Assembly (NCBI GenBank): GCA_945877855.1
Contig: CAMDWA010000028.1
Span: 1-36,367 of the forward strand
Direction: 5' to 3'
Length of the DNA stretch: 36,367 nt
Source of the DNA: Thermoflexus hugenholtzii JAD2
Lineage (GTDB): Bacteria > Chloroflexota > Anaerolineae > J036 > Brachytrichaceae
The position numbers were made by a program, and so were the translations under genes. The notes beneath the pieces are model-generated. The model was not told the DNA's origin. It ran no database searches and saw only the letters and a list, made by a program, of their open reading frames with translations. Of the stretch, positions 4,642 through 20,722 are shown in pieces; the first letter of the stretch is position 1; each line of letters opens with the position of its first letter.

Positions 4642-5031
4642 ATGAGCAAATTAATTGAATATGACGAGGCTAGCCCCGAAGTGCGGTCTGTGTATGATGA
4701 CATTCGCGCCACACGCAAAAGTGATTTTATCAACAACTTTTGGAAAGCCATTGCCGTAAACCCACAAAATTTGCGGCGGGCATGGCAACACACCAAAGAG
4801 ATTATGACCGGCCCGGGCAGCATTGACCCGCTGGTGCGTGAAATGATTTATATTGCCGTCAGTGTCACCAACGGCTGCGAGTATTGCATCGCCAGTCACA
4901 CGGTTGCCGCTCGCAACAAAGGCCTGACCCCTGAAATGTTTGGCGATATGATGGCCATTATTGGCCTCGCCAATGAAAATAATCGCTTGGTGAAGGGATA
5001 CCAGGTGGAGATCGACGCGGCGTTTAAATAA
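4642..5031 (+). CDS. Carboxymuconolactone decarboxylase (AhpD-like) family protein
   Basis: CxxCxxxH motif (CEYCIASH) and a size typical of the CMD family. Start chosen at MSKLIEY (ATG 4642) because the upstream ATG at 4594 lies inside the heptamer hairpin. The stop overlaps the amidase start (TAATG). Confidence 0.6.
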   Translation: MSKLIEYDEASPEVRSVYDDIRATRKSDFINNFWKAIAVNPQNLRRAWQHTKEIMTGPGSIDPLVREMIYIAVSVTNGCEYCIASHTVAARNKGLTPEMFGDMMAIIGLANENNRLVKGYQVEIDAAFK

Positions 5032-6416
5032 TGATGACCAACTTGACCTTTACCCCCCTCAGCAAACTGCGCCGCATGTTACGAGATAAAAAAATCTCGT
5101 CGGTTGAGTTGACCCAGCATTTTTTAGACCGTTTGGCCCAACACGGCCCCAAATATAACGCGCTGGCCGAGCTGACACCCGATTTGGCATTGGCGCAAGC
5201 CAAACAGGCCGATCAATTGCTCAAAAAAGGCGAACACAACTCACCCTTGCTCGGCATTCCCTATGGGGCCAAAGATTTGCTGGCAACCAAAGGCATCCCC
5301 ACCCGTTGGGGATCACCCGCCCACCAAGACCAAGTGCCAGAGGTCGATGCCACAACGGTGCTGCGCCTGCGCGAGGCAGGTGCACCATTATTGGGCAAAT
5401 TGGCAATGGTCGAAATTGCGGGCGGCGGCGGGTATTCATTACCCAGCGCCTCGTTGCATGGGCCGGGGCTTAATCCTTGGAATGTTAATACGTGGTCAGG
5501 TGGCTCATCATCGGGGTCGGGCAGCGCGGTGGCGGCGGGGTTGGTGCCGTTTGCGCTTGGCTCTGAAACATGGGGCAGCATCGTCACACCGTCAACCTAT
5601 TGCGGCATTACTGGCTTGCGCCCAACCTATGGCTTGGTCAGCCGCTTTGGGGCAATGGAATTGGCGTGGACGATGGACAAAGTGGGGCCGATGGCGCACA
5701 GCGCCGAAGATTGTGGCCTCATTCTGCAAGCCATTGCTGGCCCTGATAGGCTCGACCTGACCGCAACCGGCAAATTTAAATTTCGCCCACGCAAAAAACA
5801 ACATCATAAGTTGCGGTTAGGCGTGTTGCCTGCCGATTTTAGTGGCGAGCCTGAGCTTGAGCAGGTTTTTCAGGCCGCGCTTGAGGTGTTGCATAAGGCC
5901 GGTATGAAGATCAAACCAGTGGAGTTGCCCAAGCACGACTATGCTGGCATCGCCAATACGCTGCTGTATGCCGAAATGGCGGGGGCGCATGAGGCGTTTA
6001 TCAAAAGCGACAAACTTGATTTGCTGGTGAATGGCCCGCAAAAAGAGGGCTTGCGCAACGCCTTAACCTACACTGCCGCCCAAACCATTCAAGCCCAACA
6101 ACAAAAATTACAGGCCACCCACGACCTGTTGCAGCTTTTTGACGAATTTGATGCGCTGGTGTCGCCGTCACTCATGATTGAGGCCCCATCGCTTGACACC
6201 GACTTGCGCACGGCGTTTAAACGGCGCGGGGGCTATAGCGTGTTGGGGGCCTTGTGTGGCGTGCCGGCCTTGGCTTTGCCGATGGGCTTTGGCAAATCGG
6301 GTTTGCCGCTTGGCCTTAATATTACCGGCAATTTGTTTGACGAAAACACCATTTTGCACATCGGCATGGTTTATCAGCGCGAAACCGATTGGCATGAACG
6401 GCGACCACCAATTTAA
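5031..6416 (+). CDS. Amidase-signature family amidase (GatA-like)
   Basis: Amidase signature GGSSSGSGSAVAAG...GSETWGSI with the catalytic Lys in YGAKDLL. 461 aa, translationally coupled to the upstream CMD gene. Confidence 0.8.
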   Translation: MMTNLTFTPLSKLRRMLRDKKISSVELTQHFLDRLAQHGPKYNALAELTPDLALAQAKQADQLLKKGEHNSPLLGIPYGAKDLLATKGIPTRWGSPAHQDQVPEVDATTVLRLREAGAPLLGKLAMVEIAGGGGYSLPSASLHGPGLNPWNVNTWSGGSSSGSGSAVAAGLVPFALGSETWGSIVTPSTYCGITGLRPTYGLVSRFGAMELAWTMDKVGPMAHSAEDCGLILQAIAGPDRLDLTATGKFKFRPRKKQHHKLRLGVLPADFSGEPELEQVFQAALEVLHKAGMKIKPVELPKHDYAGIANTLLYAEMAGAHEAFIKSDKLDLLVNGPQKEGLRNALTYTAAQTIQAQQQKLQATHDLLQLFDEFDALVSPSLMIEAPSLDTDLRTAFKRRGGYSVLGALCGVPALALPMGFGKSGLPLGLNITGNLFDENTILHIGMVYQRETDWHERRPPI

Positions 6417-6683
6417 ATTTAAAAGATGTCATGTCGGCTCCGCGACTGAAGTCGCCCCTAAAGGCTTCGCCGATTGCCCGCCTACGCGGGCAGAAATTGC
6501 GTCCCCGAAGGGGGACGCTCGGCAAAGCCTTTAAGGACGACTTCGAGTTGTCCAAAATATTCAATTCCACGATCATCTTGACCCTTACAAATTTCGATAA
6601 AAACGTTCACACTTCGTTTTAAAATAAAATATATCACAGATAATGTAATATCATTCTAATACTTCGAGCGCATACTTAGCCCT

Positions 6684-11211: not shown

Positions 11212-12774
11212 TTACGCCGTCTTCAATATTTCATCAGCGGCTTTTACACCCGACAAATACGCCCCATGCACCGTGCCAAAATATTGGCGGCTAGCCGCCT
11301 CACCCGCAAAATACAGCACATCGTCTAGCGATTTTGCCAAATGGTCGCGCATTTCGGGAACCGCGCCAACTGGGTTAAATGAATAGGAGCCACCCGCAAA
11401 AGGGTCTGAACTCCAACGGGTAATTTGATAATCGATCGGGTCAGGGGTGTTGCGCCCGAAGATAGTGCGCAGGGTTTGCATGGCGCTGGCGACGATCTTC
11501 TCATCGCTCAAAGCCTCAATCGATTGCCCGATATTGGCGGCGTTAAACCCCAGCAAAATGGGCAAACCAGTCGGGCGGGCAAAACTCACCCACTCCACCC
11601 ATTCGCCAGCGTTGGGGGCCACATATTCCATCCAATCGTATTTGGCTTGCCAAAATACCTTGGGGAAGCGCAAATAGCACTTGTTCAACACGCCCATTTT
11701 TAGCGCCTCGATGGCCTTTTGTTTTTGGGCAGGCAAGGCGGGCTTAAACATCACGGCACTGCGTTTCAGCACCCCCAGCGGCAAAGTGACAAGCACCTTC
11801 TCGGCCACATAAGTCGCGCTGTCAGTCGTAACACTTACACGATCTTTTGCCGTTTTCCATTCAATCTGACGCACTGGGCTGTTGGTTTTAATATCAAGCC
11901 CTTGCGCCAAATACCCTGCAATAGCCCCATAACCAGCCAAAAAGAGCGCGTCATCGCCCTTAAACGCCGCATCATCGTCATACCAATGCGCCGACAATTC
12001 GCCAATGCTGCCAGCGTATTCTTGCTCAAACTTGCCATTGAGAATAAAACTAACCAGCTGCTGCTCTTCGAGTGACAGTTTGGCCCAATTGAGCGCTTTT
12101 TCGATGACGGTCTGAATCGACTGGTCGTCATCACGTTTTTGGGCCGCCTTCAGAGCTTGGGTAATGGCTTTATCTAGCCGTTCAATTTGCGCCTCTTGCG
12201 CATCGCTCAAAACTTGACCTTGTGACCCATACCCAATTGTGCTCTCATAATATGTGGTCGCCATTTTTGCACCCACCGTCTGAGCCAAGGTCATAATCGG
12301 GTTGCCATCCACTCCGTGAATCCACGACGCGCCCAAATCCATTGGCGCATCGGGCCACTTGTTGCTCGTCCACAACCGCCCGCCAATGCGATCACGTGCC
12401 TCTAACACCAGCGGCTTGATGCCACGCTGGGACAATCTTTGCGCAGCCGCCAACCCCGCCATGCCTGCACCAATAACAATGACGCGCTGAAAGGCAGCAG
12501 TGACAGCCTGAGCCACAACAATTGGCAAGCAAATTACAGCGGAAGTAGTTTTGTCGCGCTGAGAGTCGGCGGTAACAGCCTGAGCCGCAACCGCAGTCGG
12601 CACGGGGGGCAGTGTGGGATTAGATGGTGGCGACAAAGCAGGTGGTGGCACAGGTGTCGCGTTGACCGGGGCTGAGATATCAGCAGTAGGGGCATAGGAA
12701 GGTAAAGTGCTTGTGGAGGCGCTCAAACCTACCACTGTCGCCCCCAGCCATTGCAAAAAATGTCGTCTGTGCAT
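11212..12774 (-). CDS. Tat-exported flavin-containing amine oxidase (MAO/polyamine oxidase family)
   Basis: Twin-arginine motif RRHFLQW at the N-terminus, a Pro/Ala-rich linker, then the FAD-binding fold VIVIGAGMAGLAAA...LEARDRIGGR and the C-terminal amine-oxidase motif YFAGEAAS...GAYLSG. Confidence 0.75.
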   Translation of the reverse strand: MHRRHFLQWLGATVVGLSASTSTLPSYAPTADISAPVNATPVPPPALSPPSNPTLPPVPTAVAAQAVTADSQRDKTTSAVICLPIVVAQAVTAAFQRVIVIGAGMAGLAAAQRLSQRGIKPLVLEARDRIGGRLWTSNKWPDAPMDLGASWIHGVDGNPIMTLAQTVGAKMATTYYESTIGYGSQGQVLSDAQEAQIERLDKAITQALKAAQKRDDDQSIQTVIEKALNWAKLSLEEQQLVSFILNGKFEQEYAGSIGELSAHWYDDDAAFKGDDALFLAGYGAIAGYLAQGLDIKTNSPVRQIEWKTAKDRVSVTTDSATYVAEKVLVTLPLGVLKRSAVMFKPALPAQKQKAIEALKMGVLNKCYLRFPKVFWQAKYDWMEYVAPNAGEWVEWVSFARPTGLPILLGFNAANIGQSIEALSDEKIVASAMQTLRTIFGRNTPDPIDYQITRWSSDPFAGGSYSFNPVGAVPEMRDHLAKSLDDVLYFAGEAASRQYFGTVHGAYLSGVKAADEILKTA

Positions 12775-13784
12775 TCTAATCCAAACTCTAACGTCGAATG
12801 ACGATAAAGCTTGATTATATTCAGATCAAGTTGTAATAAGATTGTTGCCTCATTTTTACCTACATACTCTAACACCGACAGCACATAGCAAATGCTTTCA
12901 GGCCGTGCATTCTTCTTGTTGTTGTCCCGCACAACAATCCAAGGCCTAAACGAGGTATAGACCTTGCTAAACATCAATTCTTTACATTTGGTATACGAAT
13001 CCCAAAATGCTTGGCTTTTGGCATCCATTAGGCTAATTTTCCATTGTTTCAATGGGTTATCAGCCCGTGAATCAAAACGTCATTTTTGCTCCTCTTTCGA
13101 GATCAAAAACCAAAATTTGATCAGCGTGACACTGTCTTCATACAACCTATGCTTATATTCGGTCACTTGGCGAATAAATTGCTCATATTGTTCGGGTGCG
13201 CAAAAGCCATTGACCGACTCGACGACAGCGCGGTTATACCAACTGCGGTCAAAAAACACAATCTCACCGCAATTTGGCAATTGGCACGTGTAACGCTGAA
13301 AATACCATTGCCCCACTTCTTCTTCGGTCGGCTTGGGCCAAGCCACCACTCGCAAGGCACGCGGGTTCATATGCTCGGTAAAGCGGCGAATGGCCCCGCC
13401 CTTACCGGCGGCATCGCGGCCCTCGAACAAAATCGCCACACGCCGTTTTTTCTCTTGCACCCAGCGTTGCAGTTTCACCAATTCGATCTGTAGCTTTTGC
13501 AATTCGTTCTCATAATTGAGCAACTCGACAATTTTTTGCGGGTTAATCTCCTTCGACTGCAGCAAACTAAACAGATCACGCGGCGACTGCACGCTGATCA
13601 AATCTTTGTAGGTTAGAAATGGCGCATCGGGGTTACTGGGCGGCGTCATGGGCAAGGCTGGCGGCACTTTTGGGGGCAACTTGGCGGCTGCGGGTTTGGG
13701 CGCAGCTTTTTTGCGGCGCTTTGGCTTGTCGCTGTTCGGGTTGTTGTTTGGGTCGCTGGGGGATGGAAGTGAAGCTTGAGACAT
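12729..13784 (-). pseudogene. ppk2: Polyphosphate kinase 2 (PPK2) interrupted by a single in-frame TGA
   Basis: Upstream ORF (to 13080) has the PPK2 Walker A FEGRDAAGKGG and ...FWFLISKEEQK. A TGA at 13080-13082 is followed in the same frame by RFDSRADNPLKQWKISLMDAKSQAFWDSYTK...PWIVVRDNNKKNARPE, the conserved PPK2 C-terminus. Start taken at MSQASL (13784). The ORF is otherwise intact. Confidence 0.65.
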
Positions 13785-13869
13785 AAGAATGTGTGGGATA
13801 AAACAAAATAAAAACACCTCGTGCAAAAATCACACGCCGTAGACAGCATATTCTGCCCTTGTTCATCAC

Positions 13870-14840
13870 TCACCCCCCTGATGGGTAGCACGGCACTGGC
13901 TTGTTGGATAGTGCACAACAACCTCACAAGACCAGTCCGCGTTGACGCAAATGCAGCACTCACCCTGCTATCAATTGAGGCGGTGGGCGCGTTTGTCTGG
14001 CTTGCTTGCGCGGCTCGTGCGGGGGCAGATGCCCAGCAACTGACAGTTGCTGGGCATCTACTCACCCTTAATTGATGGCAAACGTAACACTCACCACGCC
14101 ATCAATTGAGGCAGTGATGGGGTTAGTCTGGCGTGCTTGCGCGGCTCATGCGGGTGCAGATGCACCGCACCTCGCAGGTGCGGCGCATCTACTCACCCCA
14201 CGTTGGTGGCAAATGCAACGCTCACCCCGCCCTCAATTGAGGCAGTGATGGGGTTAGTCTGGCTTGCTTGCGCGGCTCGTCCGGATGCAGATGCACCGCA
14301 CCTCGCAGGTGCGGCGCATCTACTCACCCTTAAATTGATGGCAATGCAACGCTTACCCCGCCCTCAATTGAGGCAGTGGGCGCGGTCATTTGGCTTGCTT
14401 GCGCGGCTCGTGCGGGGGCAGATGCCCAGCAACTGACAGTTGCTGGGCATCTACTCACCCTTAATTGATGGCAAACGTAACACTAACCCCGCCATCAATT
14501 GAGGCAGTGACGGGGTTAGTCTAGCTTGCTTGCGCGGCTCATGCGGGTGCAGATGCGCCGCACCTGCGAGGTGCGGCGCATCTACTCACCCTTAAATTGG
14601 TGGCAAATGTAACACTCACCCTGCCCTCAATTGAGGCGGTGACGGGGTTAGTCTGGCGTGCTTGCGCGGCTCGTGCAGGTGCAGATGCCCAGCAACTGGC
14701 AGTTGCTGGGCATCTACTCACCCTTAAATTGATGGCAAATGCAACGCTCACCCCACCCTCAATTAAGGCGGTGGGCGCGGTCGTTTGGCTGGCTTGCGCG
14801 GATCGTGCGGGTGCAGATGCGCCGCACCTGCGAAGGGCGA
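13870..14840. repeat. Tandem array of about 7.4 units of ~131 bp (130-133 bp), each with two conserved hairpins and two alternating variants
   Basis: Unit starts (motif caattgagg) at 13971, 14104, 14234, 14365, 14496, 14628 and 14760. Variant A hairpin is gatgcccagcaactg-aca-cagttgctgggcatc; variant B hairpin is gatgcgccgcacct-gcg-aggtgcggcgcatc. A second hairpin, aattgatggc...gcc(a/c)tcaatt, spans the unit junctions. Confidence 0.85.
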
Positions 14841-14888
14841 CGACGACATCTCTTTGCCAATATGACACCCCTGCCCCCCACGGCCGGG

Positions 14889-14925
14889 CCGCGCTCCGCG
14901 CGGGCAGAGGGGTGCTCCCCTCTGC
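14889..14925 (-). other. Two adjacent GC-rich hairpins 45-80 nt downstream of the NACHT-FGE gene stop (DGR-type post-VR hairpins)
   Basis: ccgcgc-tcc-gcgcgg (14889-14903) and gcagagggg-tgct-cccctctgc (14904-14925; 8-9 bp stem with a 4-nt loop). Confidence 0.5.
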
Positions 14926-14968
14926 ACTCCCCCTTGATACCAGATAACCCAGAGCACCAAAGACCCGA

Positions 14969-17839
14969 TTAACCGGAGGCCCGAGCGGAGAATCGGGGCG
15001 CACTACTCACCAAACGAAAACCGTCGTTGCTGTCACGGATGTCTACATGGGAGTCGTCACGGACCGCCGCCCGCGCATCCGTATCATAGTTATACCACGA
15101 CCCGCCGCGCACGACCCGCTTTTTTATATTTTCTATACTTGGGTCTTCACGTTCCAAATTCGCCTGATATGGATACGCTAAGTAAGCACTGCTCGTCCAT
15201 TCCCACACATTACCGCATAAATCGCTAATGCCTTCAGGCGTTTCGCCCTCGGCAAAGAGACCAATCGGGGTGGTGCGACGAATATGACGCTCGAACGTAT
15301 TGCATTGACTGGCTTCAAATTTTTCGCCATACGCATAGGCACGCGCCCGCCCGCGCCGGTCAGGTTGACCCCGCGCTGCGGCCTCCCACTGCGCTTCGCT
15401 CGGCAAAACATAGCGGCTGCCAATTTGGGCACTCAGCCACAAACCATAGGCCCGCGCCTCATGCCAACATACCCCCACCACCGGCTGGCTGGGCTGGTTA
15501 AAGGCGCTGTCTTCCCAAAACCGCGGCTGCAGCGGCACCTCACCCATCGGAAAGGTTTTAGCCAACCACGCTTCAAAGGCCTCATCACTCCAATTGCGAA
15601 GCGTATGCCAAGCTCGCGCTTGGGTTGAGGTGCAGCGTTGTTGCGCCAATAAATGGTCGATATAGTCCTCCTCCCAGCTTTTTATAGCTTGTCTGCTGCT
15701 TCGCCAGCCCTCGCGCTGGCCTGCCACCGCACCTTCGGGGGTGCGAAAATAGCTTGCGGCTGGCGTATCCCACCAACGGGCATCGCTATAACCACCCGCA
15801 CGCATAAAACAAGCAAATTCGGCATTGGTGACCGGAAACTTACCCATGCGAAATGCATCCAACTTGACGCGGTGCACATGCTTAGCATTATCATACGACT
15901 GGTCTTGGTCGCCCAGCACATAGTCACCGGCCTCAATGGCGATCATGGGCGGCAACAGATATTCATGCCCCAGCTTGCCCATGCGCCGCTCAAAACGCGG
16001 GTCGCCCAGCCCCCCCAACGCCTCACCGGCGGCAATCCGCGCCCGTAGGTCGGCGTTGCGGTCTTGGCTGCGGGCAATCAAGCCTTGCTGCAACTCGTGC
16101 AACAAGGTGGTCGCCAGCTTGGGCTTGACCTGCGCCGCCACCTCGGCCGCCAACGGCAAGTTGAGCGGCATCAGGCTGGCAATCAGCGCATTCGGCTGCT
16201 CACTCAGTTGGGCCGCCAATTTCAGCGTTTCGGCCCAGCCGCTGCGATCGAGCGGCGGCAATGGCTCATAATCTTGGGCGGTTGCCAGCCACTGCGCCAA
16301 ACTCGGCTGCACCGCCTCGGCCTGCCACGCAATCGCCGCCAGCGGCGCATCAAATTGGCGGGCCGCACGGCGGGCCGCAAAAAATTCTTGCAGCAATTGA
16401 TGATAAAACCAAAACTCCTCGCGTTGGCGATCTTCATCTAGCACCGTCAGGGCCACGCCTGCCGTCAGCACCTCGCGCGCCCGTGGGTGTTGCAACACGT
16501 CGCAGGCGCGGGCTTCGTCCAACGTCACCCGCCCACCCGCGCCAGCCAGCCCTTGGCATTGCATGGCATAGGCCAATTCGCTTAGCTTGGGCATGAGCAA
16601 CCCGCGTTCGGGCAAACGCAGGTTGGTTTGGGTATCAACACGGGTGACATCTTCACGGTCACGCAGGTCGAATAGCGCTTCGTCCAGCAGCAGTGCATTC
16701 TTGCCCTCCACCTCGCGGCGGGCGGCGCGCCGCACCAGCTCGGCAAATAACTCGGCGCGGCTAGCCGGAATTTGCCCGGCCCGCTCATTCACCAAATCGC
16801 ACAATATTTTGGCGAAATAAGGCGTGGCATATAACGCAAGTTGCTCAGGCTGGTCCTTGATCTTGCCCCATATCGCAGCGGCGTGTTTGGGCGTATGTTG
16901 CTGCAAAAACGCCTCAAGCTGAACCGCATTGAGCACCTTCAGCGTGATCTGGCGCACATCCACATCGTCTTTCACGCTTAGGGTTTGGCTATAGTCGAGG
17001 CTGCGGCAGGTAAACACGGCGCGATTGCCCGATGGCAGGTCATCGCGCAAAAAATCGCGCCAGCGTTCCACCTGTTTGCCATATACCGCCCCGTTTGGGT
17101 GTGGCATCTCGTTCAGTGCATCCAACAACAGCAACACACACCCTTGCGCCAAAAAATAATCGAGCGGCGGCAGGGTGACATGAAAGCGCTTCAGCGTTTG
17201 CTGCCATTGTTGCGCCAGCCACTCGGCTGGGTCGGGCGCGTCGGGCGTGTATTTGTTGAGTGTAACAAACAATGTCACACTCAGCTGGGGTTGGTCTGCC
17301 GCCAAATACTCGGTCGCGCTTTGCCATTGCAGGCGGCGCAGCAAGGTGGTTTTGCCGCCGCCCGGCACCCCCAGCAGCACCAGCGACGGGTCGGTGATTT
17401 CCGCATCCGCCAGAACCTCGCTCAGGTCTTGGTAATCGTGGTCGCGCTCGGCAAAGCTCAGGCTGGTGTCGGTTTTTTGGCGGTCGAGCAGCCGCATCCG
17501 CACAAAACGGGTGTCAATTTGGCGCTTTTGGGCCAAATCTTTCGCCACTGCGCGATGATATGCCGTCAATGCGGCTTGGGTGGCGGCGGGGTCGGGCGCG
17601 GGTTGGGCATCGGCAAAGCTGATATTCGGGCGGGCCTCACGCACGGCTTGCAGTAATTTGGCATAATCGCCACGCGATTCGCAATGCTTAATCAAGTTCA
17701 TGGCGAACTTGGGTTGGGTATTGCGCTCAAAATCCTCGTCTCCAATCCCCAACTCAAAACACAACAGTTCGAGTTCGTCTGTTTTGAAATGCGCCTTCAA
17801 TGCCGCATAAAGTTGTTGCTGGGTTGGGGTATGGGGCAT
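14969..17839 (-). CDS. STAND NTPase: N-terminal death-like/effector-associated helical domain, NACHT P-loop NTPase, HEAT-like repeats and a C-terminal FGE-sulfatase (SUMF1-like, C-type-lectin fold) domain
   Basis: Walker A LLGVPGGGKTTLL, a NACHT-type Walker B LLLLDALNEM, and a HEAT-like AAGEALGGLGDPR. FGE motifs: HRVKLDAFRMGKFPVTNAEF, GNVWEWTSS, RVVRGGSW...GFRLV. The N-terminus carries LxxALKAHFxxxELELLCFELGIGDEDF. Confidence 0.8.
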   Translation of the reverse strand: MPHTPTQQQLYAALKAHFKTDELELLCFELGIGDEDFERNTQPKFAMNLIKHCESRGDYAKLLQAVREARPNISFADAQPAPDPAATQAALTAYHRAVAKDLAQKRQIDTRFVRMRLLDRQKTDTSLSFAERDHDYQDLSEVLADAEITDPSLVLLGVPGGGKTTLLRRLQWQSATEYLAADQPQLSVTLFVTLNKYTPDAPDPAEWLAQQWQQTLKRFHVTLPPLDYFLAQGCVLLLLDALNEMPHPNGAVYGKQVERWRDFLRDDLPSGNRAVFTCRSLDYSQTLSVKDDVDVRQITLKVLNAVQLEAFLQQHTPKHAAAIWGKIKDQPEQLALYATPYFAKILCDLVNERAGQIPASRAELFAELVRRAARREVEGKNALLLDEALFDLRDREDVTRVDTQTNLRLPERGLLMPKLSELAYAMQCQGLAGAGGRVTLDEARACDVLQHPRAREVLTAGVALTVLDEDRQREEFWFYHQLLQEFFAARRAARQFDAPLAAIAWQAEAVQPSLAQWLATAQDYEPLPPLDRSGWAETLKLAAQLSEQPNALIASLMPLNLPLAAEVAAQVKPKLATTLLHELQQGLIARSQDRNADLRARIAAGEALGGLGDPRFERRMGKLGHEYLLPPMIAIEAGDYVLGDQDQSYDNAKHVHRVKLDAFRMGKFPVTNAEFACFMRAGGYSDARWWDTPAASYFRTPEGAVAGQREGWRSSRQAIKSWEEDYIDHLLAQQRCTSTQARAWHTLRNWSDEAFEAWLAKTFPMGEVPLQPRFWEDSAFNQPSQPVVGVCWHEARAYGLWLSAQIGSRYVLPSEAQWEAAARGQPDRRGRARAYAYGEKFEASQCNTFERHIRRTTPIGLFAEGETPEGISDLCGNVWEWTSSAYLAYPYQANLEREDPSIENIKKRVVRGGSWYNYDTDARAAVRDDSHVDIRDSNDGFRLVSSAPRFSARASG
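14995..15112 (-). other. Putative DGR variable region (VR) at the C-terminus of the FGE domain
   Basis: RGGSW-YNYDTDARAAVRDDSHVDIRDSNDGFRLV. The scaffold positions match the canonical FGE-type template pattern RGGSWNNN..AR.A.R......GFR, and the variable codons are mostly NNC/NNT (tat aac tat gat...gac tcc cat gta gac atc cgt gac agc aac gac), as expected for AAC/AAT-derived mutagenesis. Confidence 0.5.
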
Positions 17840-17847
17840 GGCGTGAG

Positions 17848-17872
17848 ATTATAGCAAGATGAGCAATGTCAA
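17848..17872 (-). promoter_or_regulatory. Consensus -35 TTGACA and -10 TATAAT hexamers (13-nt spacer) 8 nt upstream of the NACHT gene ATG
   Basis: Minus strand reads ttgaca-ttgctcatcttgc-tataat-ctcacgcc-ATG. The hexamers are perfect but the spacer is short, which would make the gene near-leaderless. Confidence 0.3.
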
Positions 17873-17882
17873 TCGCCCAAGG

Positions 17883-18272
17883 TTAAACGACTAAACGACC
17901 TTTTTGTCCATCAATAGTCAACACACGCTCTGCTATTAAATCCATACCTATCAACCCCTCCACACCTAAATTATCAGGCACAATATTTTGAGCAAGCACT
18001 GAAAATGAGGTTAGCACTAAACCCATTGTTTCAAAGCGTTGAATGGGTAATTCATAGGCTCTCAACCGCCCACCAATTCCAGACAATATCACAGTTCGTG
18101 TGCCCATTTGAGCACTGTAACCCAGCAAATCTAAAATTGCAACGTCTATGATTGATTGCGGCGAGCCAGTATCAAGAATACAGTCCAAGTAACGATCGCC
18201 ACGTGGGCCAAAAATATGGACCGTTACCCAAATAATGCCTTCAGTAAGATCGTAATCACAAGTCCACATCAT
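17883..18272 (-). CDS. Retropepsin-like (clan AA) aspartic protease
   Basis: 129 aa with the catalytic LDTGS motif and a downstream GMDLI flap-like motif, a size typical of a single-domain bacterial retropepsin. Lower local GC. Overlaps the upstream small ORF by 17 nt. Confidence 0.65.
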   Translation of the reverse strand: MMWTCDYDLTEGIIWVTVHIFGPRGDRYLDCILDTGSPQSIIDVAILDLLGYSAQMGTRTVILSGIGGRLRAYELPIQRFETMGLVLTSFSVLAQNIVPDNLGVEGLIGMDLIAERVLTIDGQKGRLVV

Positions 18273-18507
18273 TATTAATCGTCGTAAATAGGGACAATCC
18301 GTGCTTTTTACCCGTCCACAAAATCGCTGCTGACTTCAGGTCTCTTTGCTTCTCAAGAACCCGCGCATGATTTGTATCATGGGCAAAAACCACACCTCGA
18401 CTAATTTCGCCCATATTGGGCCATTCAACCTCGATCAACACCACCCACTGATTCGGGTATTGCTGTTTAATTTCGGGCCAAGTTAATAAATTTTGCTGTT
18501 TTTCCAT
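18256..18507 (-). CDS. Small hypothetical protein (83 aa) translationally coupled to the retropepsin gene
   Basis: Start set at MEKQQNLL (ATG 18507), preceded by a strong SD GGAGG 6 nt upstream. The longer track ORF (to 18567) would overlap the uvrB start. Function unknown. Confidence 0.5.
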
Positions 18508-18538
18508 CGCATCCTCCCCCTCTCCAAAGTATAATATC

Positions 18539-18552
18539 GAACATAAGTTCGA
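18539..18552. promoter_or_regulatory. LexA (SOS) box of the Cheo/Gram-positive type, CGAACATAAGTTCG
   Basis: Matches CGAAC-N4-GTTCG, and matches the B. subtilis consensus CGAACRNRYGTTCG at 13 of 14 positions. Overlaps a TATAAT at 18530-18535. Ends 2 nt before the uvrB ATG and lies 32 nt upstream of the divergent small-ORF start. Confidence 0.7.
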
Positions 18553-18553
18553 T

Positions 18554-20722
18554 ATGTCAGAGTTCAAAGTCCACTCCCCTTTTCAGCCAATGGGCGACCA
18601 ACCGACCGCCATCGACGATATGGTCAAAAGCCTGAATGCAGGCAATCGCTACACCACCTTGCTCGGTGCAACCGGCACTGGCAAGACGTTTTCGGTGGCA
18701 AAAGTGATCGAGCGGGTGCAACGCCCGGCGCTGATTATGGCGCACAACAAGACCTTGGCGGCCCAACTCTATGCCGAGTTCAAAGAATTTTTCCCCGACA
18801 ACGCGGTGGAGTATTTCGTCAGTTATTACGATTATTACCAACCCGAAGCCTATGTGCCGCGTCACGACCTGTATATCGAGAAAGAATCGACCATCAATGA
18901 CGAACTTGATCGGCTGCGGCTAGCCGCCACCAGTTCGTTACTCAGTCGGCGCGATGTCATCATCGTGGCCTCGGTGTCGTGTATTTACGGCATCGGCAAC
19001 CCCGAAGATTATGGGCGCTATGTGGTCAAGCTGCACAAAGGCGAGGTGCGCCGCCGCGATATCGTGCTGCGTATGCTCATCGCCATTCAGTATGAGCGCA
19101 ACGACATCGCTTTTGCCCGCGGCAAATTTCGCGTGCGGGGCGACACGCTCGACATTTACCCAGCCTATGCCGATACCGCCTATCGGGTCGAGTTTTTTGG
19201 CGACGAGGTCGAGCGCATCGCCGAGTTTCATCCGGTCACTGGCGAAATTATCGACGATGTCGAAGCGATCGAGATTTTTCCCGCCAAACACTTCATCACG
19301 CCCCAAGACAAACTAAAGAAGGCCATTACCGAAATCGAAGCCGAGCTTGAAGAACGGGTGGCGTGGTTTAAGTCCCACGACAAACTGTTGGAGGCCCAAC
19401 GCATCGAACAACGAGTGCGTTATGACGTGGCGATGTTGCGCGAGGTTGGGCACACCACTGGTATCGAAAATTATTCGCGCATCTTAGATGGTCGCCCGAC
19501 CGGCTTCCCGCCCTTCACCCTGCTCGATTATTTCCCCGACGATTTTGTACTGATTGTGGATGAAAGCCACAACAGCTTGCCACAAATTCGCGGCATGTAT
19601 GCCGGCGACCAAGCCCGCAAGGGCGTATTGGTCGATTATGGCTTTCGTTTGCCCAGCGCAATGGATAACCGCCCGCTTAAGTTTGATGAATTTGAAACCC
19701 GTTTTCGGCAAGCCATTTTTGTCAGCGCCACCCCCGGGCCATTTGAAAAAGAAAAAAGCCAATTGGTGGCCGAGCAAGTCATTCGCCCGACCGGCCTGAT
19801 CGACCCCGTGATCGAAGTAAAACCGGTCAAAGGGCAAGTCGATGATCTCATCGCCCAAATTCGCGCCACCGTTGCCAAAAAACAACGGGTGCTGGTGACC
19901 ACGCTCACCAAACGCATGGCCGAAGACCTGACCAATTATTTGCAAGAAATTAATATCAAGGTGCAATATTTGCACAGCGAGGTCGAGACGGTCGAGCGGG
20001 TCGAGATTTTGCGCGACTTGCGCTTGGGTGAATATGACGTGGTGGTCGGCATTAACCTGTTGCGCGAAGGCTTAGACCTGCCCGAAGTGTCGCTGGTGGC
20101 GATTTTGGATGCCGATAAAGAAGGCTTTTTGCGCAGCACCACCTCGCTCATTCAAACTGTGGGCCGCGCCGCACGGCATGTCGATGGACGGGCGATTATG
20201 TATGCCGACAAAATGACCGACTCGATGAAAAATGCCATCGACGAAACCAATCGGCGACGCATCAAACAGGTGGCTTACAACACGGCGCATGACATCCAGC
20301 CAGCTTCGATCAAAAAATCGGTACGCGACCTGACCGACCGGGTGCGGGCCGATGACGATGCCCAAGAAGCGCTACCCGAAGGCGAATATCGATCCCCCGG
20401 CGCTGAGTTTCGCCGCGCCGCCCAAGCCTTGCGTGAAACCGCTGGCAAACGGGTGTCTGATATGCCAAAAGAAGCCGCGCAACAACTGATGGCCGATTTA
20501 GAGGCGCAAATGAAGCAAGCCGCCAAAGACCTCGAATTTGAAAAGGCCGCTGCCCTGCGTGATCAAATCATGGAACTGCGCCAACGGGTGCTGGGTGTAG
20601 ACCCAAATGCCCCAGCTTGGGAGCAAGCCCGCAAAGGGATTGACGTAGAAGATAAATCGCCCGCCCAAAAGTCGAAGGGCGATGTGCAATATAAACCCAA
20701 ACGGGTGGGTCGAGGGCGTTAA
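18554..20722 (+). CDS. uvrB: Excinuclease ABC subunit B
   Basis: 722 aa; N-terminus [22 protein letters not shown] aligns with UvrB. Has Walker A GATGTGKT, helicase motifs, and a C-terminal UVR domain ([18 protein letters not shown]) followed by a basic tail. Confidence 0.95.

Follow-up and report, generated by a model that had tools for sequence, protein, structure and literature searches.

The closest described relatives of the gene pair reported here are found among the PDC systems of PADLOC, which were collected as genes lying inside BREX, DISARM and type I restriction-modification loci and which their authors call untested candidates (Payne et al., 10.1101/2024.01.29.577857). One of them, PDC-M08 (cassette CAS_00054, FAM_03167>>FAM_00414, count 381; 10.1101/2024.01.29.577857), comprises a gene for a protein of ~86 amino acids (aa) followed by a gene for a protein of ~127 aa. 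The same layout, A and then B adjacent on the same strand, is found in a stretch of 36,367 nucleotides (nt) from Thermoflexus hugenholtzii JAD2 (assembly GCA_945877855.1, contig CAMDWA010000028.1, positions 1 to 36,367; hereafter the window, meaning the whole stretch analysed). Here, a gene pair of 625 bp in total, located beside uvrB, encodes an 83-aa protein (the small protein) and a 129-aa retropepsin-like aspartic protease, and is followed on the same strand by a gene for an EAD7-NACHT-FGE protein, a STAND NTPase.

The protease matched PDC-M08B with E = 1.1e-10 over model positions 27-120 of 127 (94 positions), and all of its 42 relatives tested matched the same model. Likewise, 45 of 70 relatives of the small protein matched PDC-M08A (best E = 7.7e-6). 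The relationship is distant, however, and neither the window pair, which lies beside uvrB, nor most of its relatives, which lie among housekeeping genes, are located in or beside known defence systems. Judged by the profile matches, the pair is a divergent member of PDC-M08, a catalogued but uncharacterised candidate family, which supplies a name for it and not a mechanism.

APRc (ApRick) of Rickettsia is a membrane-associated protein that undergoes autoprocessing and is not known to have a small partner gene; Ddi1 of eukaryotes, equipped with an RVP domain, carries ubiquitin-like and UBA domains as well. The window protein differs from both of these, and from retroviral proteases, in being a bare 129-aa domain that is predicted to be cytoplasmic and is always encoded after a DUF5678-like gene. 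DUF5678 (PF18929), for which we know of no assigned function, resembles the small protein in a short conserved stretch around YPDEWV-L, albeit the window protein itself gave no Pfam match at E <= 1. We failed to find any paper on DUF5678, on PDC-M08 or on a retropepsin in a toxin-antitoxin or anti-phage role, and no retropepsin toxin was described in the literature searched.

A preliminary description of the window had regarded the two small open reading frames (ORFs) and the NTPase gene as a three-gene conflict module. Its account of the arrangement holds: the two ORFs overlap by 17 nt on the minus strand (18256-18272), they lie 43 nt upstream of the NACHT-FGE gene on the same strand (NTPase ATG at 17839), and they are AT-richer than their neighbours, with a GC content of 42.6% in the pair, 58.7% in the NACHT gene, 54.6% in uvrB and 52.1% in the whole window. 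The resemblance to a toxin-antitoxin or defence pair, which it had also pointed out, was strengthened by the match to PDC-M08 and by the multiple copies, the unrelated contexts and the decay of proteases beside surviving small genes that are described below. The NTPase, on the other hand, is probably not part of the system. We consider it very probable that the pair is a self-contained two-gene operon, autonomous and independent of the NTPase. The chances appear evenly balanced for the whole statement, namely that this PDC-M08-like operon is self-contained and that its product is a protease effector neutralised by the small protein.

The protease and the small protein

The protease matched Asp_protease_2 of Pfam (PF13650) with 34.8 bits against a curated cut-off of 24.3 (E = 2.8e-8), and gag-asp_proteas weakly. 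Its catalytic motifs are LDTGS at residues 33-37 and GLIGMD at residues 106-111, and D34, T35, G36, G106, L107 and G109 are invariant across 42 relatives. The AlphaFold model, whose predicted local distance difference test score (pLDDT) is 88.9, shows a retropepsin monomer in which a GIGG-tipped hairpin occupies the position of the flap. The protein carries the complete catalytic signature of retropepsins on what is predicted to be a retropepsin fold. A search with the protease profile yielded 885 sequence clusters at 90% identity. No match was obtained in PHROG. As the homologues begin with MWTG, the second ATG of the ORF may be the real start of the protease, in which case the overlap with the small gene would be 14 nt.

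Word-indexed searches with single protein sequences gave just three matches for the small protein and five for the protease, and it was the exhaustive and profile searches that revealed the families. An exhaustive phmmer search with the small protein against 1.84 billion cluster representatives returned 96 sequences at E <= 1e-3, mostly of 75-105 aa, with the family consensus LTWxEIKxxYPDEWVxLVD..GVVxAH..TG. The conserved region is the folded N-terminal domain, and the C-terminal tail is poorly conserved. In the AlphaFold 2 model (pLDDT 78.5), the small protein adopts a beta-alpha-beta-beta-alpha-beta fold with a disordered tail (residues 70-83), and no relative of this predicted fold was found among solved structures. 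Eight of 70 relatives showed weak matches to DUF5678 (best E = 3.6e-4). The signals for ClpS stayed under every significance threshold, with no significant match in either sequence or fold. The small protein has a calculated isoelectric point of 6.3 and the protease one of 4.5, and we recognised no signal peptide in either protein by reading the sequences.

The start codon of the small gene is preceded by GGAGG at a distance of 5 nt; a longer version of 103 aa, starting at TTG, was not chosen by the gene callers in the relatives. Compared with a relative of ~90% identity (locus L011), the ratio of nonsynonymous to synonymous substitution rates (dN/dS) was 0.09 for the small gene and 0.13 for the protease gene, and on the basis of these ratios both small ORFs are considered to be real genes under purifying selection.

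We also checked longer proteins matching the small domain for gene fusions. Two of them, P0013 and P0096, are repeat proteins and the matches are probably spurious. A third, P0028 (230 aa), combines a PIN-like DUF5615/PIN_10 domain (residues 1-105) with a small DUF5678-like domain (residues 154-214); this single case could be a genuine fusion between a nuclease of the toxin type and the small domain, or two genes merged in gene calling. Apparent fusions of the small protein with the protease in high-GC loci were rejected as artefacts of long open frames, the two genes being in different frames.

Conservation and one-sided decay of the pair

A genome scan seeded with the small protein detected 52 loci in Chloroflexota, Cloacimonadota, Myxococcota (mostly Kofleriaceae) and Riflebacteria. 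The surroundings of the small genes were surveyed by ORF calling, an iterated protease profile and a search of stop-masked frames; 47 small genes could be assessed in this way, and six could not. A protease gene directly 3' on the same strand was intact in 26 of the 47, degraded by truncation or frameshift in 13 and absent in eight, meaning that a protease or its remnant follows the small gene in 39 of 47 loci spread over the four phyla.

The picture obtained from the protease side is different. In a metagenome scan seeded with the protease, an intact small gene overlapped the start of every intact protease of ~130 aa that had enough upstream sequence (13 of 13); seven more distant matches in the same scan were longer proteins (~200-400 aa) of another architecture, with no small gene. 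Six contig look-ups from matches to the protease profile added nine more loci (L087-L091 and L094-L097), each of which has an upstream gene for 91-105 aa, and all seven of the upstream genes checked matched the small-protein profile (E from 1e-17 to 1e-21). The partner was broken or absent in 21 of 47 loci when we started from the small gene, against none of 20 when we started from the protease (Fisher p = 1.2e-4).

In all loci having both genes, the small gene precedes the protease gene on the same strand, and the stop of the former overlaps the start of the latter by 4-41 nt. In 26 of 27 other loci the GC content of the pair is below that of its flanks, by 5.3 points on average, and several copies can be present in one genome, often in Kofleriaceae. 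One locus of Kofleriaceae (L031) has two complete pairs in tandem (4787-5496 and 5932-6641), ~1.1 kb apart and on the same strand.

The decay of the protease alone can be traced in the close relatives L001-L008. Their protease genes carry a stop codon in place of W3, frameshifts and a change of DTGS to DTGL, and retain 88.8% identity to that of the window, while the small gene is intact and its identity (98.0%) is above that of uvrB (96.1%).

Proposed mechanism and its alternatives

The one-sided decay, though indirect as evidence, fits what a pair of a protease toxin and a small antitoxin would predict. The resemblance to type II toxin-antitoxin systems extends to other features: (i) two small genes are overlapping and co-directional, with the presumed neutraliser first, (ii) the copies are multiple, patchily distributed and AT-rich relative to the host, and (iii) PemK (L009) and an AbiEii-type ATPase (L046) are encoded among the neighbours. 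The pair differs from such systems in having no known toxin fold, and the small protein lacks the classical helix-turn-helix, ribbon-helix-helix or AbrB domain of antitoxins. From the one-sided decay together with these toxin-antitoxin-like features, we infer that the free protease may be harmful and that the small protein may restrain it, a mechanism whose chances we put a little below even.

If this mechanism is the case, the protease would be a cytoplasmic effector that is harmful when free and, in common with other retropepsins, works as a homodimer. Owing to the overlap of the genes, the small protein would be synthesised first and at a constant ratio to the protease, which it would bind and neutralise, possibly by blocking dimerisation or by placing its disordered tail in the active-site cleft. 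Once the small protein is lost or inactivated, for instance by phage infection or stress, the protease would be released to cleave proteins of the cell or of the phage.

Expression of the pair may be linked to DNA damage as well. The window contains a single perfect CGAACN4GTTCG (CGAACATAAGTTCG), located in the 46 nt that separate uvrB from the small gene; it is conserved in L001, and we take it to be a LexA box from the SOS box consensus of Gram-positive bacteria and Chloroflexi. A LexA box of the form CGAACN4GTTCG has been reported for Dehalococcoides, a member of the Chloroflexi. A promoter scan called CTGACA-18 nt-TATTAT on the minus strand (10 of 12 positions matching). Since the putative LexA box falls inside the spacer of this likely promoter, the pair may be de-repressed together with uvrB, and its expression may rise, after DNA damage (positions in Table 1).

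It is attractive to speculate, albeit only tentatively and with more doubt than we attach to the restraint of a harmful protease as such, that a retropepsin serves here as the toxic effector of an uncharacterised toxin-antitoxin or abortive-infection class, being checked by a DUF5678-like protein and, in this genome, wired to the SOS response via the LexA box of uvrB. If the toxin-like mechanism is genuine, the family of the pair would be the first instance of a toxin-antitoxin or defence module that relies on a retropepsin. Aspartic proteases would then join the known bacterial self-harm effectors, the PDC-M08 family would gain a mechanism, and a role would be assigned to DUF5678-like proteins, which currently have none. 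The pair also offers a very small experimental system, with two genes in 625 bp and D34 as a clear catalytic residue.

Several points weigh against the protease toxin and small antitoxin, or against their assignment to PDC-M08. The small protein of the window matched PDC-M08A only over residues 9-26 (18 residues; E = 3.7e-4), and neither Pfam nor NCBIfam detected a DNA-binding domain in it. In a Chloroflexota metagenome-assembled genome (REEB501; locus L010, 2281-2532), a small gene 97% identical to that of the window is cut short by a premature stop at codon 49. In this lineage the decay extends to the module as a whole, so the small gene is not always kept once the protease is dead. Some of the frameshifts counted in metagenome-assembled genomes are possibly assembly errors. 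Many Kofleriaceae genomes carry the pair stably between ordinary housekeeping genes, outside defence islands, and sequenced plasmids and phages gave no match in tblastn with the protease. Finally, no experiments on the toxicity, binding or phage defence of the family of the pair were found in the literature.

The alternative that survives best, though we regard it as unlikely, is that the two proteins cooperate. The small protein would be an adaptor, chaperone or activator that delivers substrates to the protease, as ClpS does for ClpAP, and the cleavage would serve regulation or quality control with no toxin involved. The ClpS signals, however, lay under any significance threshold. A cooperating small gene should vanish together with its protease, yet in 21 of 47 loci it persists intact beside a degraded or missing protease gene, and its conservation in L001-L008 exceeds that of uvrB. 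The low GC content, the multiple copies and the patchy distribution of the pair are also reminiscent of an accessory element.

It is improbable that the two proteins are an enzyme and its substrate, in which case the protease would cleave a small precursor, and the variable C-terminal tail, for instance, would be freed to act as a peptide signal or toxin. The tail (residues 70-83) is indeed disordered and poorly conserved, and pairs of protease and precursor genes are common in peptide maturation systems. Nevertheless, the conserved part of the small protein is the folded N-terminal domain and not the tail; there is no leader/core organisation, and genes for export or modification are not linked to the pair in the loci examined. 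Neither protein has a signal peptide as far as the sequences can be read, and orphan small genes are frequent.

The neighbouring NTPase gene and the layout of the locus

The combination of EAD7, a STAND (NACHT) module and FGS/FGE has already been described (PMC8195603; EAD systems also in PMC7159879; Kaur, Burroughs, Iyer and Aravind), and the 956-aa protein encoded downstream of the pair has exactly this architecture, as Pfam identified EAD7 (E = 1.6e-12), NACHT and FGE-sulfatase domains in it. The EAD-type domain that the preliminary description had recognised at the N-terminus is therefore EAD7, and the idea that this domain recruits a partner encoded elsewhere agrees with Kaur et al. (PMC7159879, PMC8195603). 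It had further stated that neither small gene carries the domain; EAD7 was indeed absent from both small proteins, and from every other ORF of the window except the NTPase gene. Because the pair has no EAD and is unlinked to such NTPases elsewhere, the comparison indicates that it is not an EAD-coupled effector of the neighbouring NTPase.

The three-gene conflict module proposed in the preliminary description, in which the small protein, the protease and the EAD7-NACHT-FGE NTPase cooperate and the pair acts as effector or regulator of the STAND sensor, is very improbable. The three genes do share a strand, only 43 nt separate the protease gene from the NTPase gene, and a terminator scan of this spacer detected no terminator-like site on the minus strand; read-through from the pair into the NTPase gene is accordingly possible but would be incidental. 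Besides, the pair and NACHT proteins are both candidate defence genes that could share a variable hotspot, and one other locus, L009, has a different STAND-like protein directly 5' of a homologous pair. In that high-GC metagenome contig (L009, 1-5111), the protease is 56% identical, the upstream gene encodes a 1232-aa kinase-AAA_16-TPR protein, and a convergent gene for a PemK/MazF-type toxin lies 3' of the pair. This is, however, the sole other locus with a STAND-like neighbour, and the AAA_16-type protein is unrelated to the NACHT NTPase.

The arrangement in close relatives speaks against the three-gene module. L001-L008, recovered from many samples and ~96% identical to the window in uvrB, have the order uvrB, small gene, protease remnant and PPK2, with no NACHT gene; positions 13685-17850 of the window, containing the NTPase gene and a repeat array, are replaced there by 155 nt (L001, 6658-6812) with one copy of the repeat. 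The alignment to L001 ends ~11 nt before the ATG of the NTPase, inside TATAAT. In L011 (~90% identity), the intact pair is followed directly by PPK2, again with no NTPase gene. Since L001-L008 and L011 keep uvrB, the pair and PPK2 together while lacking the NACHT gene, the simplest history is that the NACHT-FGE gene is a lineage-specific insertion beside an older pair. The identity of the window to L001 is 94.5% in the flank on the uvrB side and 99.3% on the PPK2 side, and this jump across the NTPase site suggests a recombination breakpoint or a variable hotspot. The adjacency of the STAND NTPase would thus reflect an insertion at a variable spot beside uvrB, and this locus is unsuitable for inferring the effectors of EAD7-NACHT-FGE proteins.

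The wider survey points in the same direction. The exact NTPase protein occurs solely in contigs with the arrangement of the window itself, and phmmer searches with the NTPase, its EAD7, its NTPase core and its FGE domain detected nothing among the called genes of 60 other loci. The neighbours of the pair elsewhere are mostly ordinary metabolic or signalling genes, with Pfam-annotated contexts such as chemotaxis, aconitase, proC and peptidase M28; among the ten largest are a SpoIIE phosphatase, an aminotransferase fusion, a caspase, Ig-repeat proteins, an S49 peptidase, an RCC1-repeat protein and the AbiEii-type ATPase of L046. As to the co-occurrence raised in the preliminary description, homologues of the small protein do accompany retropepsins or their remnants (39 of 47 loci) but not STAND NTPases, the AAA_16-type protein of L009 being the only instance. 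Homologues of the pair are mostly located away from NTPases, and the linkage is not conserved.

The preliminary description had also drawn attention to the hexamers TTGACA and TATAAT, 13 nt apart, before the NTPase gene. They are present, with 8 nt between TATAAT and the ATG, but they were not called by the promoter scan, and since a 13-nt spacer is outside the normal range, the site is, by its spacing, not a conventional promoter.

Least probable of all is that the pair is a relic of a mobile or retro-element, i.e., gag-like and protease genes left behind with no present cellular function: the retroviral-type fold, the weak match to gag-asp_proteas and the low GC content would suit such an origin, but none of the loci examined has a reverse transcriptase, an integrase or repeats beside the pair, PHROG gave no matches and tblastn with the protease was empty in phages and plasmids, and the genes are under purifying selection (dN/dS 0.09 and 0.13) in a pair conserved across phyla.

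The features of the locus are listed in Table 1.

Table 1. Coordinates of the gene pair and surrounding features in the window
Feature	Position	Strand	Basis or remark
Small gene, 83 aa, DUF5678-like/PDC-M08A-like, first of the pair	18256..18507	-	ORF, ATG at 18507, stop at 18256
Protease gene, 129 aa, single-domain retropepsin-like aspartic protease (LDTGS), second of the pair	17883..18272	-	
EAD7-NACHT-FGE STAND NTPase, 956 aa, neighbouring accessory gene outside the conserved pair	14969..17839	-	Pfam domains
43-nt spacer between protease and NTPase genes	17840..17882	-	holds TTGACA-13-TATAAT and the left junction of the putative NACHT insertion (~17850)
Promoter-like site of the pair, CTGACA-18 nt-TATTAT, in the 46-nt divergent gap with uvrB	18531..18560	-	promoter scan
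Putative palindromic LexA (Cheo-type) box CGAACATAAGTTCG, perfect, 5' of uvrB	18538..18551	no strand	pattern match
uvrB	18554-20722	+	divergent from the pair
PPK2 (polyphosphate kinase 2)	~12729-13826		
Tandem array, 131-nt unit	13947-14830		between PPK2 and the 3' end of the NACHT-FGE gene

No Rfam family was found near the locus. The NACHT-FGE gene and the tandem array together constitute an insertion/deletion polymorphism between near-identical genomes, and there is no transposase or integrase gene nearby. The gene for PPK2 is called as two consecutive ORFs (189-234 aa and 99 aa) both in relatives and in contigs identical to the window (L001, 6848-7768; L092, 10056-11111), which may be due to a frameshift or a split gene; the second of these ORFs overlaps the start of a gene for a flavin adenine dinucleotide (FAD) oxidoreductase. 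The tandem array has 6.7 copies of its unit with 83% matches, and L001-L008 have a single copy at the same place. The consensus of the repeat appears by eye to contain a GC-rich inverted repeat, the array has no match in Rfam, and it is crossed by a spurious ORF of 154 aa (14539-15003).
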